From assembly GCF_964204645.1 (NCBI RefSeq), contig NC_134030.1:14694110-14758109 (forward strand): 64,000 nucleotides of DNA, in the 5' to 3' direction. A program made the position numbers and the translations under genes. Shown here in pieces: positions 4,248-35,672 of this stretch. The DNA comes from Tubulanus polymorphus. Its lineage: Eukaryota; Animalia; Nemertea. Under the pieces are notes generated by a model. That model searched no databases. It worked only from the letters and a program-made list of their open reading frames with translations, and was not told the DNA's origin. Position 1 is the stretch's first letter. Each line of letters starts with the position of its first letter.

Positions 4248-4337
4248 TAATATGTAGTAGAGCTATGAAATGTTATGAACTGATCGATATGACATTGTAG
4301 ATCTATATGATTATGAAATACGCAAATTATATCAGGG

Positions 4338-10600: not shown

Positions 10601-10988
10601 AGTGTAAATTACGGATTCGAACTTAAACTTGGTGCCAATGCAGATATTATTCTTGTTTCAAATTATTAAGGTTAAAATTAGCCTAACCAAAATTTATGCA
10701 TTTTATCAACAAAAAATAACATTTAGGCTAGAGTAATTTTAGAGAGACATACGTATTGAATTATCACATTTTGTTAAATTAGTCCGTATTGGAAATCCCG
10801 ATAGTGGCAATCAATTCAAATCAAATCAATAAATTCTCCGGTTCGCGATTTAAATCATCAAAGATTTTATTATAAAACACGTTTTCAAAGTCAACAAGGC
10901 AACTAATTTATTTATTTTAGTACAAAGGTTTGATTTGACACTAAAATCAGTTGTTGCATTGCAATTAGCCTAACAGGAGTTAACCTCT
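7669..10988. mobile_element. Long-TIR (foldback) non-autonomous DNA element with AT flanks and AGAGG termini (ISL2EU/Harbinger-like, tentative)
   Basis: at|AGAGGTTAACTCCTGTT ... AACAGGAGTTAACCTCT|at. Inverted similarity continues for several hundred bp (7669-7864 and 8236-8712 versus 10328-10988). Related fragments at about 40677 and 42733-42996. Confidence 0.7.
8855..9300. mobile_element. Palindromic MITE with 8-bp TSD
   Basis: GGTCATCCTTATTACCGAGATGAC...GTCATCTCGGTAATAAGGATGACC. GTTTGAGG is duplicated at 8847-8854 and 9301-9308. Confidence 0.85.
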
Positions 10989-12285: not shown

Positions 12286-12452
12286 AGTAATAGGGATAAT
12301 AGGGGTTCATACCAAAGGTCGAACGGTCGAGTAAGTAAAAAATTGAAATAAATCCTCGCAAGCTCGAATTTATTTTAATTTTTTACTCACTCGCCCCTTC
12401 AACCTTTGATATGAACCCCTATTATCCTATTAATTATCCTACTATCCCTATT
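12286..12452. repeat. Terminal imperfect palindrome (hairpin) of copy A
   Basis: AATAGGGGTTCATACCAAAGG...AAATAAAT-loop-ATTTATTT...CCTTTGATATGAACCCCTATT. Confidence 0.9.
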
Positions 12453-13107: not shown

Positions 13108-14412
13108 AATATGTAAAATCAATTTTAATAAAAAATTTGATATTAAAATGGAAGCAAATAAGTACTACTGTTCAACATCTAAAATTGATATAGATAAATC
13201 TCAAAAAGCAAGACATAATAAAACTAAAACACACTTAGAAAATAAATTAAAGTTAGAATATAGAGATGATATATTAGAAACTAAATTAGATGAATTAAAG
13301 AATGAAAAAGAAATATATAAATGTGATACATGTAATCAATTCAGCGACAAAAGATATTATAAAGAACATTTAAAATCTAAAAGTCATATTAGAAATATTA
13401 ATAATGATATTTTAGGTGAAAAATATTTTGATAAAGATATTGATAAGAAACAGAAGACAATTAAAAGAATAAAAGATAAATTAAACAATAAAAGACCATA
13501 CATGGAAGATGTAAGAAATTATATTTATTCATTAGATAGGCCTAATAAAAAAGAAATAGAAATAACCGAAGCATTCAAAAGTGATATTGGACCAGCTGCA
13601 ATTGAATTTAAATTTCATAAAGGCAAAACTTTAGAAGAAAATAAAAAGCATTTAGAAAATATGAAAAAAATTATAAGAATAATTACTGATGTTGAATACC
13701 CTAAAATTAGTATATCTTCTAAAGTTAAATTTATAAAATCTGAAGATAAACCAATATATAATATAAATTTTCATTCACAACATATTATATCTAAACAACA
13801 TATAGATGATAGATTAAATAAATGTTATAATGAAATAAAAAGTAAAATAGAAGAGAAATATTTTGAAGGATCAGGTTAAATATTTGATGAAATAATATTT
13901 ATGACATTACATGTTTATAACACAAAATATAATAAGTTAACTAAATCGAAACCAATTGACGAAAATAATTTATCATATTATAAAGATGATAATATAAATG
14001 GATCAAGTTATATCAAATTACCATTTAAAACTAATGCTGTAATAAATGTACAAAATTCTGATGATAAATGTTTTCTATGGACAATTATAAGTTGCTTACA
14101 CCCAACAGAAGATATTACACATAGTTTTAGATTAACAAATTATAAACCATTTGAAAATAATTATAAGATGGATAATTATCCTGTTAGAATTAAAAATATC
14201 CCAAAAATAGAAAGAGATAATAATATAAAGATAAATGTGTTTGATTTAGTCAAATTGCCAAAAACAAAAGGTAATAAAATTGAACATTTTACATTAGAAC
14301 CTTTATACCTGTCAAAAGATTATGATTCAAATGGTGTTATAGATATATTATAGGCCTATTATGAAAATCATTATATGTGGATTAAACAAATAGATTTATT
14401 TTTTAGAACAGA

Positions 14413-14840
14413 TGTAAGGAATAATTCCTGAAATTCTGCTTTATTGTATTCTGTATACTGTATTTGATATATTTCTATGGTTGTTATTTCATGGTTTCTG
14501 GTCATGGTAATTCTATAGCCTGAGAATTTGTATAGTTCAATAGATATATCAGATATTGAGATTTTTGGTCACTTGTTATATGGATTTAGACCTGTAAGGT
14601 TGTGTTGCTGTATTTGAGTAAAGGGTGAAGATTTAAATTGAAGGTTTAGACAGCCAAATATTACGGTAAATTGCTAATATAAAGATATTCTCTTATGTCA
14701 ATAATTATACAAATTTATTTATGGTAAGTTTCTATTTGTTTGTAGTTAATCGTGCATCCGTGTTTGTGACGTCTGAAAATAAATGTCCTAATGATTTTTT
14801 GCCACGGAACATGAATCTTACGTATCGGTTGATCTTCACA
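14413..14840 (+). repeat. 5' LTR of BEL/Pao element 1
   Basis: TGTAAGGAATAA...GATCTTCACA, near-identical to 20786-21213. Confidence 0.95.
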
Positions 14841-14856
14841 TTTTATTAACGTAATA

Positions 14857-16938: not shown

Positions 16939-19900
16939 GAAGTCAGAGGTTTGGAAACTGAAGACGTAGTTTTCATGCCTGCTGTTTATACTACAGAGCA
17001 GATGCCAGTTTCACCACTGCATGTGCCAACAGAAGATGACATCCGTAAATGGTCGCACATGAGTGATGTTAAATTGCCTAAGATAGATGCAGAAATTGGT
17101 CTGTTGATTGGCAATAATATTGCGGATGCATACACACCGTTCGAGTTACGGACAGGCCCTGCTGGATCACCACATGCTTCCAGAACCAGACTAGGATGGG
17201 TCGCCTGGAATGTTATTAGATCTGGTGATGAAGACGATGATATAGTTACCGACACTGTTGACAAAATCAGCTGTGCTGTGAGTTCTCTTGATCAATTGGT
17301 TCAGGAAGCTATAGATTTTGACTTTCCTGAGCGAATTGCTGAAGATAAAAAACAATGGTCAGTTGAAGATCATAAATTTATGACGATGATGGAGTCCAAT
17401 GTAAAAATAGAGAATGGACAGTACCAATTACCAATGCCATGGCGTGACAAGAATTTGAGGTTTCCCAATAATATTCGGCATGCTGAGAAACGACTGTCAA
17501 ATCTGAAAAATAAGCTGTTGAAAAATGACAAGTTTCGACATGACTATAATGTCTTTATGGACAATATATTGGCTAAAGGCTACGCGGAACAGGTTCCTAA
17601 TGAAGATTTACGTTTGGAAAATGGTCGTATATGGTATATACCTCATCACGGGGTATATCACCCCAAAAAACCTGAAAAAGTCCGTGTCGTTTTCGATTGT
17701 CCTGCACTTTATGGTGGAGTGTCTTTGAATTCTCAATTGTTACAAGGGCCAGATTTGACTAACACTTTGGTTGGTGTGTTGATACGTTTCAGACAAGAAA
17801 GAACCGCAATAATGGCAGATATAGAATCTATGTTTTATAGAGTAAGGGTTGCACCGGATGATAAAGACTGCTTGAGATTCTTATGGTGGCCGGATGGTGA
17901 TTTGAACAAGAAAGCCATACCATTCCGTATGTTAGTTCACTTATTTGGGGCAATCTCATCCCCGAGTTGTTCTAACTGGGCTTTACGCCGGACAGCCACT
18001 GACAACGTTAGCAAGTATGAAGTAGAAGTTACCAATACAGTCTTGAAAAACTTCTATCTTGATGACTGTTTGAAGTCTCGTGTACAAGATGGTCAAAATC
18101 CAGAATTTGTGATGAGACTGATATCTCTGTGTAAAGAAGGGGGCTTTCGACTCACCAAGTTTGTAAGTAATGATCGTTTTGTAATTGAAAGTTTGCCAGA
18201 AGAAGAGCTTGCTAAATCTTGCAAGGAGTTGAAGAGTCTGGATTTTGGTTCGCCAACAGAAAGAGCATTGGGCGTCCACTGGAATATAGAGAACGACACT
18301 TATGGCTTCAGGATAACTTCTAAGCATCAACCAAATACACGCAGAGGGATTTTGTCAACGGTCAGCACAGTCTATGATCCTTTGGGTATTGCTGCCCCAT
18401 ATGTACTGCCGGTGAAAATTCTGCTACAGGACTTATGTAGAGAGAAGCTTTCATGGGGTGAAGAAATTCCTGAAAAATATCTGAAAGTTTGGGAGAAATG
18501 GCAGGAAGGTTTACCTGGCCTTGAAGAGTTGGCTATATCACGATGCTTCAAACCTCATGGTTCTTCGAAATCTTGTCAGCTGCATCATTTTGCGGACGCA
18601 AGTAATGTTGGGTACGGCACTGTATCATATTTGCGCCTTGAAGATGAAAATGGTCAAGTACATTGTTGTTTTATATTTGCTAAAAGCAGAGTAGCTCCTT
18701 TGAAGAAAATGACAGTTCCTAGGATGGAATTAGCTGCAGCTGCATTACTGATTAAGATGAATAAGATGATGTTGGAAGAATTGGAGTACAGTGTTTCAAA
18801 TGTATATTTTTGGAGCGACAGCACTGCAGTACTGAAATATATTGCTAATGAGACTGCTCGTTATCACACTTTCGTAGCGAATAGAGTGAATTTAATTAGA
18901 GATGGTTCAAGTATTCAGCAGTGGAAGTTTGTAGATGGTCATCTGAACCCAGCAGATTATGCGTCTAGGGGTTTGTCACTGGATTGTATAGAACAAAACT
19001 CAGTAGTATGGTTACACGGCCCGGAGTTCCTTTGGAAGCCAATATCTGAGTGGCCATGTCAACACGGTGTTTTACGGTCCCTGAGTGATGATGATGTTGA
19101 GTTGAAGAAGACTTCTAATGCTGTACTTTCGGTTTCTGATGATGATCCTATAAAACATCTATTTAACTACTACTCAAGCTGGCATAGACTCAAACGTGCC
19201 GTTGCATGGTTTTTAAGGTTGAAAGATTGTTTGCTGTTGAGAGTAAGTAAACGTCTTTCTGGTGAAAACGCTAATGCTGAACGATTGAATACCAATAAGC
19301 TGAGTACTGATGATCTTCAAAAAGCCGAGCTGGCAATTATTAAATGCGTACAGGAAGATTATTTCAGGAAAGAATTAGTGATTCTCCGTTCAAATGATAG
19401 AAAGTTGATTCCCAGAGGTAGTCAATTGTATCAACTAGATCCTGTTTTAGAAGACGATATAATCCGTGTTGGTGGTCGGCTGAGAAAAGCATATTTTCTT
19501 GAATATGAACAACGACATCCGGTTGTATTGCCTAGATGTTCTCATGTGTCGAAATTGATATTGTTGAGTGTTCATGCATCGGTCGGGCATCTTGGTAAAA
19601 ACTCAATGTTAGCCCGATTGCGCGAGCGTTACTGGATTTTAAGGGCTAATCAACTGGTTAAGGATATAACGAGGAAATGTGTTTTATGTAAAAAGTACCG
19701 TGGTCAAGTTTGTAATCAGAAGATGGCAGATCTTCCTCAAGAGCGATTGTTGCCTGACAATCCGCCATTTACTAATACGGGAACAGATTACTTTGGCCCG
19801 TTTGAGGTAAAACGGGGTCGTTGTATTGAGAAGCGTTATGGTGTTATCTTCACCTGCCTGGTAACTAGGGCTGTTCATTTGGAGGTCTCGCCTACTCTGG

Positions 19901-20676
19901 CCACATCTGGTTGTATTAACGCTTATCGCAGATTTATCGCACGACGTGGAAATGTACGTCTAATTCGATCTGATAATGGAACCAATTTTGTTGGAACCAA
20001 TCGAGAGCTACAGAGGAATATTGATTGTTGGAATAAGGACCAAATCCATGATTTCTTATTGCAGAACAATGTCAAGTGGATTTTTAATCCTCCAGGTGCG
20101 AGTCACTTTGGAGGTGTATGGGAACGCCTCATTCGTTCCGTCCGTAAAATCTTGTTTTCATTGATGAAAGAACAAGGTTCAAATCTAAATGATGATAATT
20201 TATCCACATTGTTCTGTGAGGTCGAGTCGATTTTGAATAGTCGACCTATATCTACGTTATCAAATGATCCAAATGATCTACAACCTTTAACCCCGAATCA
20301 CCTATTACTGTTACACAAAGGATCTACTTTTCCCCCCGGACTATTTGACAAATCCGATTTATATACTCGACGTCGTTGGAGGCAAGTTCAGCATATTGCG
20401 AATGTTTTCTGGAAGCGGTGGACATCTGAGTATTTGCATCTCCTGCAGATTCGCAGTAAATGGAATACTGCGAAACGAAACGTATGTGTTGGAGATATTG
20501 TCTTCATCGTCGATGGATCCATCCGTAACTCGTGGACTCTATCGCGTATTTCAGAAGTCCATCGTGATCGAAAAGGTTTTGTTCGTTCGGCTTCAGTAAG
20601 AACGGCAAAGGGTACTATTTTTCAGCGTCCTATTGATAAGCTGTGCGTTCTCGTCGAAAATGAAATTAAACTTTAG
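16939..20676 (+). CDS. pol: BEL/Pao Pol (protease end, RT, RNase H, integrase), in frame with gag across one TAA
   Basis: WYIPHHGV..K.RVVFD, ADIESMF, HLFGAISSP, FYLDD, HHFADAS, DYFGP, SDNGTNF, GGVWERLI. Confidence 0.95.
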   Translation, partial: EVRGLETEDVVFMPAVYTTEQMPVSPLHVPTEDDIRKWSHMSDVKLPKIDAEIGLLIGNNIADAYTPFELRTGPAGSPHASRTRLGWVAWNVIRSGDEDDDIVTDTVDKISCAVSSLDQLVQEAIDFDFPERIAEDKKQWSVEDHKFMTMMESNVKIENGQYQLPMPWRDKNLRFPNNIRHAEKRLSNLKNKLLKNDKFRHDYNVFMDNILAKGYAEQVPNEDLRLENGRIWYIPHHGVYHPKKPEKVRVVFDCPALYGGVSLNSQLLQGPDLTNTLVGVLIRFRQERTAIMADIESMFYRVRVAPDDKDCLRFLWWPDGDLNKKAIPFRMLVHLFGAISSPSCSNWALRRTATDNVSKYEVEVTNTVLKNFYLDDCLKSRVQDGQNPEFVMRLISLCKEGGFRLTKFVSNDRFVIESLPEEELAKSCKELKSLDFGSPTERALGVHWNIENDTYGFRITSKHQPNTRRGILSTVSTVYDPLGIAAPYVLPVKILLQDLCREKLSWGEEIPEKYLKVWEKWQEGLPGLEELAISRCFKPHGSSKSCQLHHFADASNVGYGTVSYLRLEDENGQVHCCFIFAKSRVAPLKKMTVPRMELAAAALLIKMNKMMLEELEYSVSNVYFWSDSTAVLKYIANETARYHTFVANRVNLIRDGSSIQQWKFVDGHLNPADYASRGLSLDCIEQNSVVWLHGPEFLWKPISEWPCQHGVLRSLSDDDVELKKTSNAVLSVSDDDPIKHLFNYYSSWHRLKRAVAWFLRLKDCLLLRVSKRLSGENANAERLNTNKLSTDDLQKAELAIIKCVQEDYFRKELVILRSNDRKLIPRGSQLYQLDPVLEDDIIRVGGRLRKAYFLEYEQRHPVVLPRCSHVSKLILLSVHASVGHLGKNSMLARLRERYWILRANQLVKDITRKCVLCKKYRGQVCNQKMADLPQERLLPDNPPFTNTGTDYFGPFEVKRGRCIEKRYGVIFTCLVTRAVHLEVSPTLATSGCINAYRRFIARRGNVRLIRSDNGTNFVGTNRELQRNIDCWNKDQIHDFLLQNNVKWIFNPPGASHFGGVWERLIRSVRKILFSLMKEQGSNLNDDNLSTLFCEVESILNSRPISTLSNDPNDLQPLTPNHLLLLHKGSTFPPGLFDKSDLYTRRRWRQVQHIANVFWKRWTSEYLHLLQIRSKWNTAKRNVCVGDIVFIVDGSIRNSWTLSRISEVHRDRKGFVRSASVRTAKGTIFQRPIDKLCVLVENEIKL

Positions 20677-20785
20677 ATTCTCTTTGTTACTTTAGATTCA
20701 TCGTGCTTAACAGTCAAGAATAGGTTTTTGTTTTTGGACATTATCGTTATTATGTTAATTGAGTTTCTCAATTAGGGGGCGGGTA

Positions 20786-21213
20786 TGTAAGGAATAATTC
20801 CTGAAATTCTGCTTTATTGTATTCTGTATACTGTATTTGATATATTTCTATGGTTGTTATTTCATGGTTTCTGGTCATGGTAATTCTATAGCCTGAGAAT
20901 TTGTATAGTTCAATAGATATATCAGATATTGAGATTTTTGGTCACTTGTTATATGGATTTAGACCTGTAAGGTTGTGTTGCTGTATTTGAGTAAAGGGTG
21001 AAGATTTAAATTGAAGGTTTAGACAGCCAAATATTACGGTAAATTGCTAATATAAAGATATTCTCTTATGTCAATAATTATACAAATTTATTTATGGTAA
21101 TTTTCTATTTGTTTGTAGTTAATCGTGCATCCGTGTTTGTGACGTCTGAAAATAAATGTCCTAATGATTTTTTGCCACGGAACATGAATCTTACGTATCG
21201 GTTGATCTTCACA
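20786..21213 (+). repeat. 3' LTR of BEL/Pao element 1
   Basis: Matches the 5' LTR; one substitution noticed by eye (GGTAAGTTT versus GGTAATTTT). Confidence 0.95.
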
Positions 21214-22401
21214 ACAGATAATAATCACAATAAAATATATCTATGTAGAAAATGTATAACTAAACTCAGTAATGAAAAGGCATTATTAAATCATAAACAA
21301 TTATGTGAAAATCATGATTATTGTAAAATAGCTTTACCAAATGAAAAGGAAAAAGTATTAGAATTCAAAAATATGATTTCAAGAATAAAGTACCATTTGT
21401 AATATATGGAGATTTTGAATCACTCAATAAAGAATTAACTGATCAAGATAGAAAAGAAATATATTATAAAAGAAAGAAATTAAATTCTAATGAAAATGAT
21501 GTAATTGATTATTCAGATCCTCTAATAACAAATACAATTAAAAAGATTCATCAATCAGCTGCAGCTTTTGGATTATATATAAAATCTGATTATCCAGAAC
21601 TAATCAAAAGTGAATATTATCATTATAGAAATGAAAATGTTATCAATCATTTTTGTGACTTATTAATTGAGTATGAAATAAAATTTAATAAAAAGTTAAA
21701 TGAAAATAAAGAAATAATTATGACAGAAGAAGATAAAGAAGAATTTGAGTTTGCTGATAAATGTTATTATTGTGAAAAGATATTCAATATATAGAACATA
21801 TGAAACAATTTCGGGCAAATAATCCAGAACATAATAAAGCGTATAATAACAATTATCAAAAAAAAGATATCAAACAGATTATAATTACAAATGTCGCGAA
21901 ACTCATAAAAATGAAAAATAATTCTCACACGCTCGAATTTATTTTTCATTTTTTATGAGTATAACTCCTAATTCAAGTAGAAATTGTTATTATTTTCATG
22001 TTTTTCATTTTTACGAGCTCGACCGTTCGACCTTTGGTATAGAACAACTAAACCCCTATTACTGACTTGATATTCGAAAATGTAATGACACCAGTAGAAA
22101 TCAATGTCATTATTTTTGCTCACTCAACCATTTAACCTTTAGTATAGAACAACTTAACCCCTATTACTCTTAAAATATTTATATATATGAATAACATTTT
22201 AATTGACAGATTATTCAATATAAAAGTGTTAGTAAAGTGTGAGCTCTTATAGAATAGATATATAGATATATTTTAAACATTATTTCAATATTTATATTTG
22301 TATGAGTTAGATTTTTAAACATTAAAAGTGTGATTGAAATAATACATGATATAAATCATTGAACTTCTAAAATCAATTTGAAAAAAAAATTTAGTATTAA
22401 A

Positions 22402-25400
22402 ATGGAAGCAAATAAGTACTACTGTCCAACATGTAATATCAATATAGATAAATCCCAAAAATCAAGACACAATAAAACTAAAACACATTTAGAGAATAAA
22501 TTGAAACTAGAATATAAAGATGATATATTAGAAACTAAATTAGATGAATTAAAGAATGAAAAAGAAACATATGAATGTGATACATGTAATCAATCATTCA
22601 GTGATAAAAGATATTATAATGAACATTTAAAATCTAAAAGTCATATTAGAAACATGAACAATGATATTTTAGGTGAGGATTATTTTGATAATGATAACGA
22701 TAAGAAACATAGACAATTAAAAGAATAAGAAATGAATTAAACAATAAAAGACCATACATGGAAGATGTAAGAAATTATATTAATTCATTAGATAATAGAA
22801 AAGATATAGAGATAACCGAAGCATTTAAAAGTGATATTGGCCCAGCAGCTATTGAGTTTAAATTTCATAAAGGAAAAACATTAGAAGAAAATAAAAAACA
22901 TTTAGAAAATATGAAAAATATTATAAAAATAATTACAGATGTTAAATACCCTAAAATAAGTATATCAGTTAAAGTAAAGTTTATAAAATCTGAAGATAAA
23001 CCAATATATAATATAAATTCTCATTCGCAACATATTATATCTAAACAACATATAGATGATAAATTAGATAAATGTTATAATGAAATAAAAACTAAAATAG
23101 AAGAGAAACATTTTGAAGGATCTGGTTTAATATTTGATGAAATAATATTTATGACTTTACATGTGTATAACACAAAATATAATAAGTTAACTAAATCAAA
23201 ACCAATTGATGATAATAATTTATCATATTATAAAGAACCAGATATTGAAGCATCGAGTTATATTAAACTACCACTTAAAACTAATGCTGTAATAAATGTA
23301 CAAAATTTTGATGATAAATGTTTTCTATGGACAATTATAAGTTGCTTACATCCAACAGAAGATATTACACATAGTTTTAGATTAACTCATTATAAACCAT
23401 TTGAAAATAATTATAAGATAGATAAGTATCCTGTTAGAATTAAAAACATCCAAAAAATAGAAAGAGATAATAATATAAAGATAAATGTGTTTGATTTACT
23501 CAAATTACCAAATACAAAAGGTAACAATATAAAACATTATACATTAGAACCTTTATATCTATCAAAAGATTATGATTCAAACGATGTTATAGATATATTA
23601 TATTATGAGAATCATTATGTGTGGATTAAAAGAATTGATTTATTTTTTAAATCAGAAAATGATTTTGATAATAAAATATATCTATGTAGAAAATGTTTAC
23701 ATAAATTGAGAACTGAAAATGCATTATCAAATCATAAACAATTATGTGAAAATCATGATTATTGTAAATTAATTTTACCAAATGAAAAGGATAAAATATT
23801 AGAATTCAAAAAATATGATTACAAAAATAAAGTACCATTTGTAATATATGGAGATTTTGAATCATTAAATAAAGAATTAACTGATCAAGATAGAAAAGAA
23901 ATATATTATAAAAGAAAGAAATTAAATTCTAATGAAAATGATTTTTCAGATGAACCACCAAAAACAAATACTATTAAAAAGATTCATCAATCAGCTGCAG
24001 CTTTTGGATTATATATAAAATCTGATTATCCAGAACTAATTGAAAGTGAATATTATGATTATAGAAATGAAAATGTTATCAAACATTTTTGTGACTTATT
24101 AATTCAATATGAAATAAGATTTAGTAAATTATTGAATACAAATAAAGAAATTATAATGACAGAAGAAGATAAAGAAGAATTTGCGTTTTCAGGTAAATGT
24201 TATTATTGTGAAAAGATATTTAATTATAAAGATAAAAAAGTTAGAGACCATGATCATTTGAACGGAAAGTTTAGAGGCGCTGCGCATGAGAATTGTAACT
24301 TACAAGCTAAGAAAATTAACTTTGTACCAGTTATATTTCATAATCTATCAGGATATGATGCACATTTATTCATCAAACAGTTATGTCATAAAATAGAAGA
24401 AATTAATAATGAAATAGAAAGATTAAATTCAAATAGATCAAAAGATAAAATACCAACTTATAAATTTAAAATGTTAGCTAGAACATCTGAGAATTATATA
24501 TCATTCCAATTTGGTTGCCTAAGATTTATAGATTCATATAGATTTTTAAATAGTTCATTAGATAACTTATCAAAATCATTAGTTGATGATGAATTAAAAA
24601 TATTAAAGCAACACTATCCAAATAATGATGATTTCCAATTAATGAGATATAAAGGAGCGATTCCATATTCTTTCTATAAAAATCATAATGATTTCAAAAT
24701 AACTGAACTTAAAAAGGAACAATTTTATGATGAATTAAAAAATGGACATGTTAAAGATGGAGTTTTTGAAAGAACGATTAATATATGGAATCATTTTAGA
24801 ATAAAAAAACATGGTAAAAATTAGTAGATTTGTATCTAAAATCTGATGTTTTATTATTATCGGATATATTTGAAAGGTTTAGAGATGTAAACCTAAAATA
24901 TTTTAACATTGATCCTTGTCATTGTTATTCATCACCAGGTTTAACATGGGATTGTGGATTAAAATTTACAGATATAAAAATGGATTTGTTAACAAATATA
25001 GATCAATTACTATTATTTGAAAAATCTTTAAGAGGAGGAGTTTCAGGTGTATTAGGCGACAGATATTTCAATGTAAATGATAACCCTGGATATAAGTTAT
25101 TATATATAGATGCAAATAATCTATATGGTTGGGCAATGATGGAACCTCAACCTTATGGAGTATTTGAAATAAGTGAAGTTTTACAACATGAAAATAATGA
25201 TAAATTTGATTGGAAGAAAAGAATTCTAGATGTTGCAGATGATTCAGATACTGGTTACCTCTTTGTTGTAGATTTAGAATATCCTGAACATATAAAATTT
25301 GAATCTAGAAATCTAGCATACTGTCCCGAACATAAAACTGTAACTCATGAAGAACTATCAAATTATCAAGAAAGAATTAAACCCGAAAATCATATTCATA

Positions 25401-26233
25401 CAGAAAAAGTAATGCTAACTCAAGAAGATAAATATAATTATGTAGTACATTATAGAATGTTGAAGTTTTATCTAAAACAAGGAATGATTCTAAAAAAGTA
25501 CATAGATATATTTCATTTAGTCAATCTAAGTGGTTAGCAAAATATATAGATTTTAACACCAAACAGAGAACTGAAGCTAAAACTGATTTCGAGAAAGATT
25601 TCTTCAAGTTAATGAATAATGTATTCTATGGTAAGACTTGTGAAAATATTAGAAATAGAAATGATATTGAGTTAGTTAGTAATCGTAAAAGGATAAGGCA
25701 TTTACAATCATATCCTAAGTCTTTAGGTAAAAACTAATAACATAACAGATGATTTAAAAACATTAAAACATCATTTTGATTTTAGTAACTATCCTAAAGA
25801 TCATGAATTGTTTAGCAATGATAATAAAATTCCTGGTAAATTCAAAGATGAATTAGGTGGTGAAGAAATGATTGAATTCATCGGTATTAGATCTAAAATG
25901 TATTCATATAAAACTAAAGAACATGAAGCTAAAAAGTTAAAAGGAATAACCAAAAGTGTAGTAGAAAAGAATATTCATTTCAAAGATTACATCAATTGTA
26001 TATTCAATGAAGAAGTTAGAAAACATAAGATGAGATGTTTAAGATCTGAAAATCATGAAATGTTTATTGAAGAAATTGAAAAGATAAGTCTAAACCCATT
26101 TGATGATAAAAGATATATTTTAGATGATGGAATTCATACAGTTGCTTATGGTTGTAATTTAGATGAATACTTAAAATTTAAAAGAGAAGAAACAAAAGAG
26201 AAGGAAATGATGAATAGGATTATAACGTGTTAA
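22402..26233 (+). pseudogene. polB: Protein-primed family B DNA polymerase polyprotein (2x C2H2 ZnF, terminal-protein region, vOTU-like protease, exonuclease with HNH insert, polymerase), frameshifted
   Basis: Exo I VIYGDFES, HNH/endoVII CYYC...RDHDH..GKFRGAAH..CN, Exo II FHNLSGYDAH, FIDS, YLKSDVLLL, motif A YIDANNLYGWAM, motif B FKLMNNVFYGKT, GKFKDE, FIGIRSKMY, DDKRY. Frameshifts at about 22715, 24820 and 25495. Motif C (DTDS) region deleted at about 25735. Confidence 0.95.
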
Positions 26234-26262
26234 TCAAATTTTAATAAAAATATGTATTATAA

Positions 26263-26616
26263 ATGGAGAGTAAACAAGCAAACAGTGAGAACAACAAATT
26301 ATTTCTAGATAGAATAAAAGATACTTCAAATGTCAAATCAGTAGCTTATAAATTTAAGAAGTTAAAAGAATTAACAATCCATAAGAAATATCTAATTACA
26401 GATATTGTTACAGTTACTAACAAATATGGAGATAAATTAGTTATACACTTAGAATATGAAGGATTAAAAGGAAATACATATAAATTCAGAACATATTTAC
26501 CAGATAGATTTCATAGATTATCAAGTGAAGATGTAGAAGAATTATGTTCTGGAGATTTCTATTTCGTATACAAAGGTAAGAATGAAAAGGGGCACCACGA
26601 AATAGATTTCGAATAA
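26263..26616 (+). CDS. Small Polinton-associated protein, putative OB-fold/ssDNA-binding (copy 2)
   Basis: Intact 117-aa ORF, paralogue of 12751-13107. Confidence 0.7.
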   Translation: MESKQANSENNKLFLDRIKDTSNVKSVAYKFKKLKELTIHKKYLITDIVTVTNKYGDKLVIHLEYEGLKGNTYKFRTYLPDRFHRLSSEDVEELCSGDFYFVYKGKNEKGHHEIDFE

Positions 26617-26630
26617 AATATGTAAAATAA

Positions 26631-27387
26631 ATGGTAAAATTAAAAGAATACAGAATATTTGCAGATTATAGAAGACTTACAAATTATAAATCTCATAATT
26701 TACTAGTACAATTAGATAGAGAATTTAAGAATTGTGTTGATTTAAAATTAGTTAATATAAGTTTATGTAATTGTTTTTACAATGTATCGGATAAAACTAT
26801 TGAACATAGTCTTTTTAATTCATGATAGAAATAAAAGTAAATGGTTTCATCTTTATCTTAAACCAGGATTATATAATTTAGATACATTAGCGCAGGAAAT
26901 TAATAGAAGAGCTCGGTTGAAAATGGGTGCATCTGCTGGATTTGGATTAAGACTGATTAAAAGTGATAGCTCCGATAAAATAAGAATAAAATTGGGTAAT
27001 GAAGATCAACATCAATTTCTAGTTAAGAAACCATTAGCTAGAATTTTAGGAATAACTCCAGATGTAGGGATACGGAATGCTGATGCTACACCAAACTTAA
27101 TACCTTTTACACACTTTTATATTCATTGCAATTTAATTGATCCTACAAAAACATTCGAAGCAACTAAAGATATAACTTGTAATTCTGGTTTACTAAACAT
27201 TTTACCATTGAAGAATGTTAAAGAATTTGGAACGAAAATAAATTATAATTTAGCCGAGTGTGATTTTAAACCATGCATTCCTAAATTTAATAATTTTAAA
27301 TTAGAAATAAGAAATCATAATGGATACTTAATTGATTTGAATAACTTTCCTGTAATTTATGAATTAGTTATAAGATGTAGAGAGTAA
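26631..27387 (+). pseudogene. Putative minor capsid (penton, single jelly-roll) protein, one frameshift
   Basis: ORFs 26631-26825 and 26782-27387 join into one gene. Motifs FYNVS, L.PGLYN, YIHCNLID and C-terminal IRNHNGYLIDLNNFPVIYELVI resemble Polinton pentons. Confidence 0.7.
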
Positions 27388-27404
27388 TTTTTTTCACTAT
27401 ATAA

Positions 27405-27746
27405 ATGAATATAACTGTTGGACCGAGTATATGTTTTGGGTTTGATTTTAAACATGGTAAAGAAATAAGAATTAAACTAAATGATGTAATTACTGATATA
27501 AAAAGTAAATCATTTAACAATGCATCAATGATTAATAAAGAAAATTATAATATAGAAAAAGTAATTGATTTAATTAAAACGCCTTTAGAATATTATGGAT
27601 TAAATGAAGATGGAATTATTGATGATATTAAAAACAAATTAACCAAAATATATGATAATCATAAAAGTAGTAATGAAATAAATGTTGAAATAATCATAAA
27701 TAAGATAACTAAATATTTCGATGATAGTAATTTTTTTGATAAATAA
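27405..27746 (+). CDS. Hypothetical viral protein
   Basis: Intact 113-aa ORF starting at TAAATG within the viral gene run. Confidence 0.6.
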   Translation: MNITVGPSICFGFDFKHGKEIRIKLNDVITDIKSKSFNNASMINKENYNIEKVIDLIKTPLEYYGLNEDGIIDDIKNKLTKIYDNHKSSNEINVEIIINKITKYFDDSNFFDK

Positions 27747-27968
27747 ATGAGTGATAATAAGTGGATAATAACTGGATTATATAATGGAGCATTACTATCA
27801 GTTGGAACTGTTGGTTATTCAATGGTATTAAAAAAAGTATTTAAAATGGGAAGTGTTAATGTTGATAGATTTGATATAAATGATATCTTAAAATTAACAT
27901 TAGCAGTTACTTTATCTAATTTAACTATTGATTATTTGGAAAAACAAAAATATATTCCTCCTATATAA
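27747..27968 (+). CDS. Small hydrophobic viral protein
   Basis: 73 aa with two hydrophobic segments; TAAATG start. Confidence 0.65.
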   Translation: MSDNKWIITGLYNGALLSVGTVGYSMVLKKVFKMGSVNVDRFDINDILKLTLAVTLSNLTIDYLEKQKYIPPI

Positions 27969-27992
27969 ATACATAATTATTTTACTAAATAA

Positions 27993-28195
27993 ATGGCTTC
28001 TGCAGTTATAACTATTATAGGATCGGCAATTGTTAACGCTTTAGCATTTACTGGTGGCACTTATTTATTTAAACATATAAACCTAAATTATCAGATTATT
28101 ATACTCCAAGTAAAGAACAACAGAAATATGAAATAATATGGATTCTAGGTGGAACAGTTATTGTTATATTTGTAGCATACAAATTTACTTATTAA
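27993..28195 (+). pseudogene. Small membrane protein, apparently internally deleted
   Basis: MASAVITIIGSAIVNALAFTGGTYLF joined out of frame to PKLSDYYTPSKEQQKYEIIWILGGTVIVIFVAYKF; TAAATG start. Confidence 0.55.
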
Positions 28196-28220
28196 TTATT
28201 TATTATTTTTTTCTAAATAA

Positions 28221-28649
28221 ATGGAAGATAAAGTTGATAATATTGATATTATTCCTCATGATATAAATAAAACTAAATTAAAAACATATTTAGAAAAACA
28301 AATATTAGAATTTGAAAGTGACTTAAAATTAAAAAGAAAAAATATTTAAAAAGTAAAATTATATATTATCTTATTATTAGTGGTTCGGTTACAATTAGTT
28401 CTGTAATAACATTTTCAGCAATATTCAGCCCATTAACACCTTTAGCTATATCAATTGGTGTGTTAGGATTATCATCAAGTGTTTTAACTGGTATAAGTTC
28501 AAAATATAAAAAGTAATAAAGAAAAGATTAAAACTAATATAAAAGAAATTAATAAATTGAAGAATACACTAGATAATATAATAAGTTTAAATGGTCATTT
28601 AACAGTTGAAGAACAAGATAAATTATTAAAAGAATTAATAAATTATTAA
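28221..28649 (+). pseudogene. Two-TM membrane protein, frameshifted
   Basis: MEDKVDNID..., then KIIYYLIISGSVTISSVITFSAIFSPLTPLAISIGVLGLSSSVLTGISSKY after a slip in an A-run. Confidence 0.55.
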
Positions 28650-28665
28650 TTTTTTTATTATATAA

Positions 28666-29988
28666 ATGGTAGATAGTTTTCCAAAAAGCTTTCCAATATA
28701 ATAAATCAATTAAATATAATATTCCAGCAATAGATTTTAATAATATTCCAGTAATAGATATTACATATAGAAATGAAGTTTTAATTTCATAAATTGATTT
28801 ATATATTTATGTTACTGAAAGTAATAATTTTCATGTAAAGATGAAAAATATATTTCATGTGTATACAATTCAAATGAGGCAAAACAATGGTTATTAAAAT
28901 CTAATATGAAGTATAGGCAGAACCAATTAAATTTTGCTGTTTATTGCGCAACAACAGGATGTGGAATAAGTTGGAATGATCATTTAAACAAACCAAGTTT
29001 ACCATTGATGTTATCACTCTTTAGATTTCATACTTATTCTCAAATAAAATTAATATTAGATGAATTAGAATGTCATTTACCAGGTTCAAAATATTTTAAA
29101 GAATTGAATAATAATATTAATTTGTCTAAGTTTTATGAAATATGTAATGAATTAAATATTAATTCAAATAAAGATTTTAGAGCAAAAATTGGAACAATGG
29201 GTGGATTAGGAATATTATATACTAAAGAATTTGGAAAAATAATGACAAATTCAGATATAACAACACTAAATTGGAATGAATTACCAAAATATTATAATAA
29301 TATACAACAACAAAACAATAATGGTTGGGTTAATTTCTTTTTTGAAAATAGTGAAGGTTTTACAAAATCAGGTATACAAAGAATAAATCAATCTATTAGA
29401 ACTTATTTGATATGTATTTTAGGTGCGCAAGTTAAAACAAGATCACCAATAGTTGGAAATGATAAAACTTCATTCGATGCGCAGAAACAATTCAAAGTAT
29501 TATTTGAAGATTCAATTCATAATGATAAAAATAGATCGATTCCAGAAAACATCGTAATATATCAAAATTATTTAGATAAATCACATATTAGATTAAATTA
29601 TTGTATAGGCCCTAATCTATTAATTATTTCTAATGATTTAGTATTAAAGATGGGAAATATAATTGGTTATAATAATCTAATTAAAACTGCAACAATAAAT
29701 AATTCATTTGGATTAAATGATATTAATAAAAAGATTATTACTGCTCCAAAATTAATGGAAGGTGAAAAAAATAAAAAACATATTCAATCAACAGAAACTA
29801 AAACTAAGAATATCAAATTAAATAATGATTCTAAACCGGATTATAATACATCAGAAAATATTAAAACTGATAATATTCAACATGATATACTTAAACTAAA
29901 TGATGATAATAAATCCCATGAAAATACTTAATTAGCTATAACTTGTATAGGAATTGTAATAGGAGGAATATTATATTTTAAATTCTAA
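28666..29988 (+). pseudogene. Viral protein with C-terminal TM anchor, frameshifted at both ends
   Basis: TAAATG start with ATG at 28666. Core ORF 28906-29931 (QLNFAVYCATTGCGIS...YLICILGAQ). Shifted tail LAITCIGIVIGGILYFKF*. Confidence 0.6.
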
Positions 29989-30004
29989 TTTTTTTATTAT
30001 GTAA

Positions 30005-31468
30005 ATGGCAGAAGGAGGTGGAGAAGATTATGAAATGGAAAACAAGGGAAATAATGATGATGCCAATACTACCGATGATGATTATGTGTCTGCTGATACT
30101 AATATTGATAATGATGATGAATCAGCATATAATTCTAATTCTAATTTAGCAGATAGTGGTTCTAAAGCCCCATCAACAGAGGAACATGATAGAAGAACTA
30201 GATCGAGAATAGCTCCTGAAAATTTAAATCCAGATTTAGAAAAAGAAAATATAGAAAATAATGAATTTATATATAATTTCCAACCTGTATTTGAAGATTC
30301 TGGATATAATATAAATGCCAGAGGCGCCAGACTTTTAGTACAAGATTTGAAATATTTAGATGGTGAATATCATTATCATTTGAAAGATGATTATTATATC
30401 AATATCACTTATAAAAATCAAAATATAATATTAGCAGAATCAACTTTGAGAAAATTAGAAACATTTAGAATTAAAAGAATAAGTAATAGTAATGAACTAG
30501 AAGATGTAACAAAAGAAGAAATAAATCAAAATAAAAGAGTATTTAAACAAAGAATTAATAAATTATTTGAAACAATCGATAATAATTTAGAACCAGAATC
30601 AACTTCTGAACAGAATAAAACTTCCAAAACTAGTAAAATTAAATCAAACGGAGTTCAAACTGAAAAACTTTTACCGAATGGACTACTTGATGCAACAGAT
30701 CAAGAAATAGAAGCTTTTAGTATGTTTTCTAAAAAAGCAATTAGAGAAATAATAAGTATACGAAATGAAGCTGATAAAATTGCGCGCGAAAAAAATATTA
30801 GATATAATAAAATTAAACCTTTAGAAAATAAATTATTTGACACCAGAAAAGAATTAGAACAATTAAAATTAGATAGAGAATTTAAAGTTATTGAAGAAAT
30901 TGAATTTAAAAAAAGAAATTCATATTTAGAAAAAGAAATTGATGATTTAGAATATAACATAGAATTTCAGAAAGAAAAAATGAAATTATTATTAAAATCA
31001 TATGATTATTGTATTAATAGATTAAAAGTTGTTGTTAAAGAGTAAATACTAAAACCAAATTCTGACATATCACTAAAAGATAGAATAAAATTATTATTTA
31101 AGTTTGAAGGGATAACAATTCTTTCAAATCTAACAGCCGTAACTATGTTATTTACAACAATTGGTTTAGCTGTATCAAATGCTTTAAAATCTACTCCTAC
31201 TCCCAATAAACCAAATAAACCCCCGAATGATAATAATTCTATACAAGATAAAGTTAAAGATGGTTTAAAGAAATTAGCAAAATATTTATGGGAACTATCT
31301 AAAAAATCTGCTGCAGCATTACCAGGAATTATTGCATCAATTGTTGGTTTTATATTGAAATCTGCAGGAAACATTATCAACTTTGCTGCTGAACATATTA
31401 TTTTATTTTTAATTACAGTTGTAAGTGCTATTATTTTTGGGTAAGTAAACATAATCAAAAATAAATAA
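30005..31468 (+). pseudogene. Acidic / coiled-coil / multi-TM viral protein with in-frame nonsense codons
   Basis: ORFs 30005-31045 and 31145-31444 share a frame, separated by one TAA. Hydrophobic and amphipathic C-terminus (ALPGIIASIVGFILKSAGNIINFAAEHIILFLITVVSAIIF). Confidence 0.65.
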
Positions 31469-31488
31469 TTAATTTTTTTGTTAAATAA

Positions 31489-31668
31489 ATGAGTGGGAGT
31501 TATATAAGTCCTTCTAAGATTTCTAGAATATCTAATGCTATTAAAGCAGAAAGATCACGCCATCTAATAATTACTCATAACCCTTCAAATATTAATCCCG
31601 ATGAAACTTTATATGTTAGAATTCCTCGATTAACACAAAATACTTTTTACGTTCCAAATAGTATTTAT
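31489..31668 (+). pseudogene. Major capsid protein N-terminus (double jelly-roll type), truncated
   Basis: IKAER...IITHNPSNINPDETLYVRIP.L......VPNS resembles adintovirus-type MCP N-termini; ends abruptly. Confidence 0.6.
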
Positions 31669-31671
31669 GGA

Positions 31672-31765
31672 GGGAAAAAAGTATTCTTTGGTGAAATATA
31701 AAGGATATGATGATAAATTTAATGAATGGATTTTATCTAGTAAAATTAAAAGTATAAATGAATAA
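31672..31765 (+). pseudogene. Chromodomain C-terminus, probably the end of a Polinton rve integrase
   Basis: Alternative frame reads KYSLVKYKGYDDKFNEWILSSKIKSINE*, matching the chromodomain YLVKWKGY...N.W pattern. Confidence 0.65.
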
Positions 31766-32369
31766 AGATTTATTTATATTTGAACCGCATAATATGTTAG
31801 TTACTGGGGTAACAAACTGTGGTAAAACACAATTCATAGTAGATTTGTTAGAAACTGTATATAAGAATTATTTTGATAATATAATATTATTCTGCCCCAC
31901 TTATGAAATGAATAAAACATATAATAGAGATATAGCTAAGATAAAAAAGTTTATTACAATAGATCCTAAAGCAGTAAAAGAAAATTTAGATAATTGTATA
32001 AAAATAGCAATTGATACTTATAAAGGATCAAATACATTATTCATTATAGATGATTGCGCTAATTTACACAATTCAAAAGTCAGAGAAACTGAGTTATGTT
32101 ACCTAGCTTTCTCTGGGAGACATTTTGGGATAACAACATGGGTTTTAAATCAAAAATATAATTCAATTGTTAAAGACTTTAGGGAAAATATAAGATTTCT
32201 AGTTTTATTTTATAACAAAGATAGAAAATCTATGCAACAATCATTGGAAGAAAATCAAATTATACCTACTGAGTTACATGATGAATATATGAATAAATTA
32301 AAGAATAATAAAGGTTCAAAATTATTACTGAGACTACAATTTCCATATGAATATAAATTTATAAAATAA
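31758..32369 (+). CDS. A32/FtsK-like genome-packaging ATPase
   Basis: Walker A GVTNCGKT, Walker B LFIIDD, and GRHFGITTWVLNQKY; intact 203 aa. Confidence 0.92.
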   Translation: MNKDLFIFEPHNMLVTGVTNCGKTQFIVDLLETVYKNYFDNIILFCPTYEMNKTYNRDIAKIKKFITIDPKAVKENLDNCIKIAIDTYKGSNTLFIIDDCANLHNSKVRETELCYLAFSGRHFGITTWVLNQKYNSIVKDFRENIRFLVLFYNKDRKSMQQSLEENQIIPTELHDEYMNKLKNNKGSKLLLRLQFPYEYKFIK

Positions 32370-32551
32370 CTATTTATATACCTATGTATTAGATACCCTA
32401 ATACCTGATACCCTATTGTATACCCTAATACCTACCTATGTATTAGATACCCTATTAGATACCTTAATACTTAAAACCCCATTTTTTATTTACTATTATT
32501 TTATACAATTTTCAACCAATATTATTATTTGAGTTAAATATAATTAATATC

Positions 32552-32920
32552 TTAATCACTTTCACTATCAGACCCTAACAATTTATTCAAACTCTCTACC
32601 GTATCATCATCAATAGTTGTTTTATTGAACTTATTCATCCTTTCTACCGCATCATCAATAGTTTCTTCTTTATCTTTCACCAAAAGTGTGTCCACATAAT
32701 CTTTAATATCAATATGCTTATCTGTAACTATATTTTCATTATCATCTTTCTTAGTGTTTGCTCCTAATATTTCATTTACAATGTTTGATCCTAATATTTT
32801 ATTAGCATCGGTTAAATCTAATTCATCTTTATTAGGTGTTGCTAATAATCTTCATATAATTCTTTACCATTTACTTTTTTATTTGAAACAAACTTTGTAA
32901 CATATTTAAATGGGTAATGG
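32552..32920 (-). pseudogene. 3' part of an acidic viral protein on the right arm
   Basis: Minus-strand frame LLATPNKDELDLTDANKILG...ESLNKLLGSDSESD*, joined upstream to truncated polB C. Confidence 0.45.
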
Positions 32921-34813
32921 GTCTCATGCCCTGCGCCTCTAAACTTCCCATTCAAATGATCATGGTCTCTTACTTTTTTATCTTTATAATAAAATATCTT
33001 TTCACAATAATAACATTTATCTGCAAACTCTAATGCTTCTTTATCTTCTTCTGTCATTATGATTTCTTTATTTGTATTCAATAATTTACTAAATCTTATT
33101 TCATATTCAATTAATAAGTCACAAAAATGATTGATAACATTTTCATTTCTATAATGATAATATTCACTTACAATTAGTTCTGGATAATCAGATTTAATAT
33201 ATAATCCGAAAGCAGCAGCTGATTGATGAATCTTTTTAATAGTATTTGTTTTTGGTGGTTCATCTGAAAAATCATTTTCATTAGAATTTAATTTCTTTCT
33301 TTTATAATATATTTCTTTTCTATCTTGATCAGTTAATTCTTTATTTAATGATTCAAAATATCCATATATAACAAATGGTACTTTATTTTTGTAATCACAT
33401 TTTTTGAATTCTTATATTTTATCCTTTTCATTTGGTAAAACTAATTTACAATAATCATGATTATCACATAATTGTTTATGATTTAATAATGTACTTTCAT
33501 TACTGAATCTATGTAAACATTTTCTACATAGATATATTTGATGGTGATCATTTTCTGATTTAAAAAATAAATCGATTTGTTTAATCCACATATAATGATT
33601 TTCATAATATAGTATATCTATAACATCATTTGAATCATAATCTTTTGATAGGTATAAAGGTCCTAATGTATAATGTTTTATATTGTTACCTTTTGTATTT
33701 GGCAATTTGATTAAATCAAATACATTTATTCTTAAATTATTATCTCTTTCTATTTTTGGGATATTTTTTAATTCTAACAGGATAATTATATATCTTATAA
33801 TTATTTTCAAATGGTTTATAATGTGTTAATCTAAAACTATGTTGTTTATAATCTTCAACTGGGTGTAAGCAACTTATCATAGCCCATAGAAAACATTTAT
33901 CATCAAAATTTTGTACATTTATTACAGCATTAGTTTTAAATGGTAGTTTAATATAACTCGATGCTTCAATATCTGGTTCTTTATAATATGATACATTATT
34001 TTAATCAATTGGTTTTGATTTAGTTAACTTATTATATTTTGTGTTATAAACATGTTAAGTCATAAATATTATTTCATCAAATATTAAACCAGATCCTTCA
34101 AAATATTTCTCTTCTATTTTAGTTTTTACTTCATTATAACATTTATTTAATTTATCATCTATATGTTGTTTTGAAATAATATGTTGCGAATGAGAATTTA
34201 TATTATATATTGGTTTATCTTCAGATTTTATAAATTTAACTTTTGATGAAATACTTATTTTAGGATATTCAACATCAGTAATTATTCTTATAATATTTTT
34301 CATATTTTCTAAATGTTTTTTATTTTCTTCTAATGTTTTTCCTTTATGAAATTTAAACTCGATAGCAGCTGGACCAATATCACTTTTAAATGCTTCGGTT
34401 ATCTCTATATCTTTTTTATTATCTAATGAATTAATATAATTTCTTACATCTTCCATGTATGGTCTTTTATTGTTTAATTTATTTCTTATTCTTTTAATTG
34501 TCTTATGTTTCTTATCATTGTCATTATCAAAATAATCTTCACCTTAAATATCATTATTCATATTTCTAATATGACTTTTAGATTTTAAATGTTCATTATA
34601 ATATCTTTTATCACTGAATGATTGATTACATGTATCACATTTGTATGTTTCTTTTTCATTCTTTAATTCATCTAATTTAGTTTCTAATAAATCATCTTCA
34701 TATTCTAATTTCAATTTATTCTCTAAATGTGTTTTAGTTTTATTGTGTCTTGCTTTTTGGGATTTATCTATATTGATTCTACATGTTGAACAGTAGTACT
34801 TATTTGCTTCCAT
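32921..34813 (-). pseudogene. polB: pPolB 5' half, copy C (inverted), truncated at the end of the HNH module
   Basis: ORFs 34544-34813, 34055-34456, 33412-33810 and 32842-33081 are collinear with copy B up to RGA.HE. Confidence 0.9.
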
Positions 34814-35075
34814 TTTAATACTAATTTTTTTTTTTAATTGATTTTAAAAGTTCAATGATTTAAATATGAATTATTTCAATCACACTTTACTAACACTTTT
34901 AATGTTTAAAAATCTAACTCATACAAATATAAATATTGAAATAATGTTTAAAATATATCTATATATCTATTCTATAAGAGCTTGTACTCTCGTACTCTGG
35001 CTTGAAAGCCTACTTTTCTAATTACTTATATATGTTATTCATTTATATTTTATTCACGTATATGATTATTTTAAG

Positions 35076-35269
35076 AGTAATAGGGGTAATGGGCTTTCAG
35101 GTTAAAGGTTGAGGGGTTGGGAAATTTTACAAATATGAAAATAATAATAATTTCTAGTTGAATTAGGAGTGTGCGCGACTAATTCAATTAGAAATTATTG
35201 TTATTTTTACATTTAAAAAATTTCTCGACCTCTCGACCTTTGGCTTGAAAGCCCATTACCCCTATTACT
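35076..35269. repeat. Terminal imperfect palindrome (hairpin) of arm C
   Basis: AGTAATAGGGGTAATGGGCTTTCA...TTGAATTAG-loop-CTAATTCAA...TGAAAGCCCATTACCCCTATTACT. Confidence 0.92.
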
Positions 35270-35672
35270 GCCATGAGGCAGAGTAGATCACCTCAGAATA
35301 AAAGAAAAACTTTCGTAAACCAGACCAAGGTAAACGAAACAACCAAATCGGAAGAGATGCAAATGATCCTTAACAAACTTCGGAAGATGGAAGGAGAAAT
35401 GAACAAAATGAGACTGGAACTAGAGCAACGGACCTGGAGACCATCGAGGTGGAGGAATAGTGGTCCACAGAACCGACCTCCCACGGTTCCGGTGGAAGAG
35501 AGAACATGTTATAGGTGTGGAGTAACATGAAAGCTCAGTGTCCGGAAAACGCAGAGGAACCTGGTCAGGGAGGCGGGGCCAGGCGGAAAATGGAGACAGC
35601 CTCCCAGAAACCCAAGACGCAACTAGTAGGTCCACGCCGCGAAATGCTCGTGTACATACAGAACCAACCAAG
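35270..35672 (+). pseudogene. LTR-retrotransposon (Gypsy-like) gag fragment with zinc knuckle
   Basis: GC-richer island; coiled-coil followed by RTCYRCG...CPE. Confidence 0.55.

Follow-up and report, generated by a model that had tools for sequence, protein, structure and literature searches.

How are the genes of an integrated animal virus transcribed, when no RNA polymerase gene is found in the available sequence of the element? The question is raised by a 64,000-nt stretch of the genome of the nemertean Tubulanus polymorphus (contig NC_134030.1, positions 14,694,110 to 14,758,109, forward strand; hereafter the window), where one of the many copies of a Polinton-type provirus lies, broken, at 22063-35269. 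An initial annotation, made from the letters alone, had proposed that the structural genes of this element stand behind poxvirus late promoters, and that it is transcribed by a poxvirus-like or other helper among the nucleocytoplasmic large DNA viruses (NCLDVs). Here we examine the motif, its likeness to poxvirus promoters and the competing explanations for it.

The T-tract and TAAATG at gene starts

All ten consecutive genes of the element start at TAAATG (ATGs at 26263, 26631, 27405, 27747, 27993, 28221, 28666, 30005, 31489 and 31758), with TAA before each ATG, as had been described. At six of these starts (27405, 27747, 28221, 28666, 30005 and 31489) seven T are followed by 7, 6, 5, 6, 6 and 6 nt, respectively, and then by TAAATG. 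No other T7 run exists on the + strand of 26240-32400, and TTTTTNT likewise occurs there only six times. The comparison with AT-matched shuffled sequence that the initial annotation called for came out clearly: against the six composite sites, 2000 dinucleotide shuffles of this interval gave 0.0075 on average and never more than 1. The composite motif is absent from the - strand of the interval and occurs once in 39 kb of flanking DNA (1-12400 and 37000-64000). TAAATG alone is less special, with 19 + strand sites, nine of them internal, against a shuffle mean of 8.0.

Some details of the earlier description had to be revised. The genes mostly do not abut, being separated by 14-29 nt where gaps were measured; stop and start are fused only at 27747, and the gene at 31758 overlaps the integrase remnant. 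The placement of the motif in front of structural genes holds for the major capsid protein (MCP) gene at 31489, the one gene recognised as structural (through its intact orthologue), but not for the putative minor capsid and ATPase genes, which lack the T-tract; nor is the motif confined to structural genes, since relatives also have the T-tract in front of a nucleoside kinase gene, the integrase gene and an HNH gene. Finally, the shorter T-run noted at 27993 is not general, the tract being unbroken in 563 of 1008 reads from other copies.

The motif was followed in six metagenomic relatives (L001-L006) fetched via the window ATPase, with 74-78% identity. Together with the window these gave a set of 44 hand-picked starts, for which 472 internal ATGs served as control. 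TAAATG stands at 40 of the 44 starts and TAAAATG at the other four, compared with TAAATG at 27/472 internal ATGs; TAAATG with at least five T at -16 to -10 is found at 26/44 starts and at a single internal ATG out of 472. Mechanical calls of open reading frames (ORFs) begin at TAAATG in 14/16 cases in L001, 7/8 in L004, 3/4 in L005 and 4/9 in the broken window copy. Across ten upstream regions orthologous between the window and L001, identity is 1.00 at -3 to -1, 0.73 at -16 to -10 and 0.39 at -40 to -21. Sister copies give the same picture: in reads covering 27700-28010 about 1000-fold, variants at 5% or more occur at 1/26 motif positions versus 5/12 spacer positions (Fisher p=0.008), the single variable motif position being the T-tract before 27993. 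At the start of g4, none of 13 motif positions carries such a variant and three of six spacer positions vary.

The T-tract keeps a fixed distance from the ATG, although the upstream stop may lie anywhere between -80 and 325 nt from it. Moreover, stop and start are fused at only 2 of 30 measured junctions, and in two divergent gene pairs both genes, on opposite strands, have the motif. For these reasons neither translational coupling nor termination alone explains the motif, and the view that TAAATG is more than a stop/start overlap was borne out.

Poxvirus likeness and competing explanations

When about a third of IMG/VR was scanned with the strict window motif, at least 120 matches were obtained, 12 of those listed opening a frame, and among the matches listed the motif stands before the poxvirus A14 gene, a late gene in vaccinia (PMC11980589). 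Nine poxvirus loci were fetched from this match, and 20 genes between A5 and A23 were identified and classed according to the table of PMC11980589. TAAATG starts are found in one such locus (L130) at 7/9 late, 3/6 intermediate and 1/5 early genes. At the late starts of two loci, T occupies position -13 in 14/14 and -14 in 13/14 cases, which is the centre of the element's tract; in the published register, T lies at the tenth base upstream of TAAAT (PMC11980589; PMC5294985). A matrix built from positions -16 to -4 of 28 poxvirus late starts (seven genes, four loci), with TAAATG itself excluded, gave a score of 0.93 for the 40 true TAAATG starts of the element family and -7.97 for 27 internal TAAATG sites (p=2e-6). 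In the reverse comparison, a matrix built from the ten window starts placed poxvirus late genes higher than early ones (p=0.0095) and higher than 850 background ATGs (p=1e-4), all of which were outranked by A17, A14 and A10.

Published intermediate promoters consist of an A-rich stretch followed by T (PMC11980589; PMC5294985), and we infer that the A-rich start class of the element resembles them. The element thus shares with vaccinia late and intermediate promoters a TAAAT placed over the ATG, a T-tract centred 10 nt upstream of TAAAT, a spacer of 5-7 nt and, besides, an A-rich TAAA class. It differs in that its motif varies less than that of the poxvirus loci and lies in an integrated Polinton in which no RNA polymerase gene was found. 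In sequence and register, then, this real and conserved motif, tied to the ATG, is like poxvirus post-replicative (late) promoters.

A second scan, of about half of IMG/VR and with a pattern derived from the element, again gave at least 120 matches. Among those listed, 80 loci of at least 2 kb with flanks comprised ten from poxviruses (all one A17 region, hence not independent) and 70 non-pox loci. The ten poxvirus loci have TAAATG at 67/138 ORFs and the tract at 38, and as a sequence match poxviruses are the best found for the motif. The explanation that we favour, and hold to be probable, is that the motif would be a promoter for the post-replicative RNA polymerase of an NCLDV helper, most likely a pox-like one.

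A number of observations count against this explanation or limit it. The 70 non-pox loci, picked by motif, still have TAAATG at 83/710 ORFs and the tract at 14 among the matches listed, and two non-pox giant-virus loci reach TAAATG at 6/10 and 4/10 ORFs. The claim of poxvirus late-promoter grammar therefore stands as far as sequence and register match real poxvirus DNA, but a poxvirus as the specific helper does not follow, and another AT-rich NCLDV, or an egovirus (bioRxiv 10.1101/2024.03.23.586382), may be the helper. Whole-record counts of the motif versus its reversed pattern in giant viruses (11 vs 4, 6 vs 0 and 2 vs 3) indicate a weak genome-wide excess or none. No candidate helper beyond known-type poxvirus records appeared among the listed IMG/VR motif matches, two contigs searched among the follow-ups of the motif scans held one site each, and tblastn with 144 frames taken from pox and giant-virus loci found no homologue of them in the element or in its relatives. 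The window matrix does not separate late from intermediate genes (p=0.26, nine vs six genes), and the late genes A7 and A21 score at background. All sequences are 76-80% AT, starts were partly hand-picked, and neither the relatives nor the poxvirus loci are independent samples.

The distant relatives L007-L009 (33-39% capsid identity) also weigh on this side, having TAAATG at 0/16 ORFs and no tract, with TAAAATG at 4/7 picked starts; because of them, the full motif is placed, on the sequences compared, in an AT-rich sub-lineage only. Furthermore, the start class is not tied to the gene, g1 being of the T class in L001 and of the A class in the window, and g3 the reverse. Since the class varies by relative for the same gene, a two-step cascade from A-rich and T-tract classes is only suggested.

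As a separate observation, three non-pox giant-virus records with their own RNA polymerase (L166, L190 and L150, from G003, G004 and G005, respectively) contain many ATAAATG/TAAATG starts, some with a T-tract.

Other explanations for the motif were weighed against these data. The host's RNA polymerase II, or a nuclear factor encoded by the element, might read a TATA-like core and a leaderless initiator whose likeness to the poxvirus form is convergent, no helper being involved. Indeed, several starts hold TATATAAA or TATAAA, and a nuclear stage of the element is implied by the chromodomain of its integrase. According to a title cited in PMC5294985, TBP targets vaccinia intermediate and late elements, and coral polintoviruses are reported to be transcribed in coral colonies (PMC11131425), which also speaks against dependence on a helper, although these may belong to other lineages. 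Half of the starts, however, have TAAATAAATG instead of TATA, and the likeness to poxvirus late promoters extends to the register of the T-tract. The TATA-like letters also touch the ATG, leaving too little space for a Pol II start at its usual distance of 25-30 nt. We regard this account as unlikely, though it keeps some weight. An RNA polymerase derived from an NCLDV and carried by a sister element or plasmid could also transcribe the element in the cytoplasm, in the manner of the yeast pGKL elements, which combine a TAAAN initiator and slippage with a polymerase of their own (PMC6211774). No RNA polymerase gene was found in the window or in L001-L009, and L001 spans the morphogenesis block, so that this arrangement seems quite unlikely.

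It might also be supposed that the T-run ends transcription, or marks the 3' end, of the gene upstream (in the manner of asfarvirus polyT, of the poxvirus early TTTTTNT or of Pol III), with TAAATG serving as stop/start or translation context. Five of the six T7 runs in the window come directly after TAA, T-runs follow the ATPase gene in L001 and L004, and transcripts of African swine fever virus end at 6-7 T (PMC7458399). Additionally, 20.6 kb of coding strand (window, L001 and L004; per-gene synonymous shuffles) contain fewer T-runs than expected, with 5 TTTTTNT against 18.6 expected and 29 T5 against 51.1; A-runs are depleted too, however (16 A7 against 33.3). The fixed spacing to the ATG, set against so variable a distance from the upstream stop, and the rarity of fusions both argue against a terminator as the whole explanation, as do the T-tracts before genes with no same-strand gene upstream and the lack of any T-run within 100 nt past the stop of the window ATPase. 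We consider it very unlikely in this form, but a side-role of the T-run in termination would be compatible with a promoter, and the depletion of TTTTTNT may mean that the polymerase reading the element stops at T-runs. Avoidance of TTTTTNT was rejected as proof of poxvirus early termination, its depletion beyond that of T5 or of the mirror pattern being only borderline. Finally, an artefact of chance or composition might be suspected in very AT-rich DNA, given a GC content of 0.21-0.25 and the nine internal TAAATG sites in the same 6 kb. Chance was rejected by the shuffle, internal-ATG, cross-species and cross-copy tests, and we give it practically no credence.

If the motif is indeed a promoter for the polymerase of a helper, the element would depend on an NCLDV, probably a relative of poxviruses, much as a virophage does. 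After infection by the helper, either the element DNA would reach the helper factory or helper factors would reach the nucleus. Poxvirus early transcription takes place inside the virion core, and a parasite would therefore be limited to the intermediate and late machinery, which fits the two start classes: the A-rich class (polymerase and likely single-strand DNA-binding protein) would be read earlier, in an intermediate-like manner, and the T-tract class later, with the T-run possibly doubling as terminator for the gene upstream. The starts of the element have T at -3, contrary to the purine usual in eukaryotic start contexts. This would be explained if transcripts began in the AAA of TAAAT, practically leaderless, and gained a 5' poly(A) head by slippage, in line with the TAAAN initiator and slippage of pGKL (PMC6211774). 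A pox-early-like AAAANTGAAAA before the polymerase gene was considered and rejected, since it fits only loosely at 22402 and the copies at 13148 and 34813 do not have it.

Genes, ends and copies of the element

The assignment to an endogenous Polinton-type element was upheld by a double-jelly-roll (DJR) capsid, an A32-like packaging ATPase (PF04665, E 4.9e-12 for the window ORF at 31758) and a remnant of an rve integrase. The element is on a ~13-kb scale and integrated. Its relative L001 (11.5 kb) has the gene order of the window with open frames and spans the whole morphogenesis block; it encodes a likely single-strand DNA-binding protein, a putative minor capsid protein, six small or unassigned genes (several hydrophobic), the MCP, an integrase with rve and chromodomain (Pfam), the ATPase and a nucleoside kinase. 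An AF2 model of its MCP (pLDDT 90) matched iridovirus, PBCV-1 and mavirus capsids in Foldseek with E 1e-10 to 4e-16. NCLDV capsids stood above the first adintovirus entry (rank 28), and in both fold searches NCLDV capsids outranked those of virophages. With 412 clusters at E up to 1e-30, the capsid family is a large one. Membership in the Virophaviricetes, judged by a virophage-type capsid and a protease, was not supported, with virophage capsids outranked and no protease found. Likewise, no protease family was detected among the ORFs of the window or L001 that could be the adenovirus-type cysteine protease marking group 1 Maverick-Polintons and adintoviruses, a divergent one among unassigned ORFs being possible.

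No RNA polymerase gene had been visible to the initial annotation, and none was found by Pfam in the main ORFs of the window and relatives or by tblastn with the 144 frames, which include three RNA polymerase beta-subunit loci and poxvirus RPO19. The gene at 22402-26233 probably encodes a protein-primed polymerase: its translation contains what we take to be PolB motifs, and three fragments of it gave no polymerase match in Pfam, PHROGs, NCBIfam or PDB. In IMG/VR no relative was detected with g7, with the ATPase (single sequence and profile), with an MCP profile or with a polymerase fragment, the MCP had no match in phage and plasmid collections, and an Atlas search with g7 had none either. 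Capsid genes of this family also occur in records labelled Bartonella, Burkholderiales, Saprospiraceae and Iainarchaeum (P0165 cluster; L007-L009), probably as eukaryote carry-over in prokaryote assemblies. The kinase of L001 (10340-10981, - strand) is a deoxynucleoside kinase (PF01712, E 1.7e-31), whose gene has the complete T7-N6-TAAATG start and adjoins a Zn-finger gene back to back; no named poxvirus relative of it was found.

In one DNA run of the organism (1,934 million letters), read depth over 21800-35400 was 110-990, most reads being 90-99% alike, and at 22063 and 35269 reads exit into diverse flanks. On these grounds, the genome contains many diverged integrated copies of the element. 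From a run presumed to be of RNA, two 35-nt pieces aligned, which speaks neither for nor against transcription. The two positions are the element ends; the end regions are inverted, and nested copies mask a clear 6-bp target-site duplication. Within 12258-36650 lie at least four nested copies of the polymerase gene (13148, 22402, 34813 inverted and 35670), 89-92% alike, with g1 before the polymerase in one and after it in another. The initial annotation had thought of a possible inducible antiviral agent; the window copy cannot itself act as one, for it is decayed: a single deletion near 31668 removed most of the capsid and integrase genes, and frameshifts, stops and deletions break most others. 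Long imperfect palindromes occur at element ends (35076-35269, 194 nt, 82% arm identity, -67.5 kcal/mol as DNA; 12288-12432, 146 nt, 85%; weaker at 21900-21960), and strand-switch joints appear in reads near 21894/21969. Such palindromes may be hairpin or flip-flop ends, which would be odd for a protein-primed element, or may reflect alignment ambiguity.

Features of the element in the window, with coordinates
Feature	Position	Strand	Basis or remark
T7-N7-TAAATG, late-type promoter/start of g3	27388..27407	+	
T7-N6-TAAATG, start of g4	27731..27749	+	fused to g3 stop here; L001 stop 19 nt upstream
Interrupted T-tract-N6-TAAATG, start of g5	27977..27995	+	see text for other copies
T7-N5-TAAATG, start of g6	28206..28223	+	
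T7-N6-TAAATG, start of g7	28650..28668	+	21 nt before ATG identical in L001
T7-N6-TAAATG, start of g8	29989..30007	+	
T7-N6-TAAATG, start of major capsid gene	31473..31491	+	
A-rich class start (A-run, TTT, TAAAATG) before polymerase N-terminus	22378..22404	+	same class at 13148, 34813 (-), 12751
A-rich class start with TAAATG before g1	26238..26265	+	
A-rich class start with TAAATG before putative minor capsid gene	26608..26633	+	A-run kept in L001
Probable protein-primed polymerase gene	22402..26233	+	presumed PolB motifs
g1, 117 aa, likely an OB-fold single-strand DNA-binding protein	26263..26616	+	weak assignment
Putative minor capsid protein, 254-aa ORF, frameshifted	26631..27387	+	size and position
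g3, 113 aa, no assignment	27405..27746	+	
g4, 73 aa, hydrophobic	27747..27968	+	90% identical to L001 orthologue
g5, hydrophobic, broken	27993..28192	+	internal deletion near 28075-28078
g6, two-helix membrane protein, broken	28221..28649	+	orthologue: sub-threshold SLATT match
g7, ~440 aa, broken	28666..29988	+	conserved as far as distant relatives L007/L008
g8, coiled-coil and hydrophobic C-terminus, broken	30005..31469	+	
5' fragment of DJR major capsid gene, deletion-cut	31489..31668	+	76% identical to L001 MCP residues 3-60
3' remnant (chromodomain end) of rve integrase	31667..31765	+	
A32-like packaging ATPase, open frame	31758..32369	+	PF04665; TAAATG start without T-tract
Inverted second copy of 22157-24291 (element end and polymerase 5' part)	32922..35087	-	92%
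Imperfect 194-nt terminal palindrome	35076..35269	.	35269 = element end with many different read flanks

The DNA around the element holds other repeats. A young Bel/Pao long terminal repeat (LTR) retrotransposon at 14412-21213, with LTRs 99.8% identical, a 5-bp target duplication (ACAGA) and open gag and pol, lies inside another Polinton polymerase-gene copy. A repeat family of 154-bp tandem units with a 70-nt head ending in (CCGT)n occupies 39377-60160 and resembles the non-autonomous Helentron-type elements of lophotrochozoans. GC-rich, broken reverse-transcriptase-like frames at 4400-7200 (- strand) are, we assume, DIRS-like.

Known systems and consequences

Promoters borrowed from a helper are known from protists. 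Integrated mavirus, with helper-type promoters, is silent until its helper CroV infects (bioRxiv 10.1101/068312), and Gezel-14T uses the early motif of its helper PgV (bioRxiv 10.1101/2022.07.28.501842). Both resemble the present element as small integrating DJR-capsid viruses with an rve integrase, a (likely) protein-primed polymerase and promoters that copy those of a large cytoplasmic virus; they differ in having protist hosts, Mimiviridae-type motifs and known helpers, whereas here the host is an animal and the motif pox-type. The sequence suggests that the element extends the helper-promoter principle of protist virophages to an animal Polinton.

Among animal viruses, Polinton-like viruses (PLVs) in entomopoxvirus occlusion bodies have been proposed as poxvirus hyperparasites (Barth et al. 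2024, PMC11296320). Those PLVs encode a cysteine protease and either lack an rve integrase or have a tyrosine recombinase; here no protease was detected and an rve integrase is present. The words 'promoter', 'TAAAT' and 'transcription' do not occur in the main text of that paper. With Maverick-Polintons/adintoviruses and the animal PLVs near Aquintoviricetes (PMC8502044; bioRxiv 10.64898/2026.06.19.733378) the element shares the capsid, A32 ATPase, rve integrase, probable protein-primed polymerase, inverted ends and many copies, and it differs from Maverick-Polintons/adintoviruses in the protease, not detected here, and in a capsid fold nearer to NCLDV entries. Octocoral, hydrozoan and bivalve ATPases fall outside the two Maverick groups (bioRxiv 10.64898/2026.06.19.733378); going by description, these may be the lineage of our element. 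The yeast pGKL elements (PMC6211774) are similar in their protein-primed linear DNA and their TAAAN initiator related to poxvirus promoters, but have their own RNA polymerase, no capsid and no integration. Among titles and the beginnings of abstracts, we found no description of poxvirus-type promoters in animal Polintons, an earlier mention elsewhere being possible, and 'promoter' is absent from the accessible text of Starrett et al. (PMC8502044), the coral paper (PMC11131425) and one 2026 preprint.

How animal Mavericks and Polintons are expressed, and why no virions of them have been seen, is an open question. If the explanation we favour is correct, this lineage would stay quiet in ordinary tissue and be expressed only during infection; the provirophage model would then reach beyond protists to animals, and a pox-like virus would be predicted in this host. 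On a bolder reading, which we hold to be rather unlikely, the promoters would be the fossil trace of a poxvirus-like pathogen of the host that is still to be discovered.

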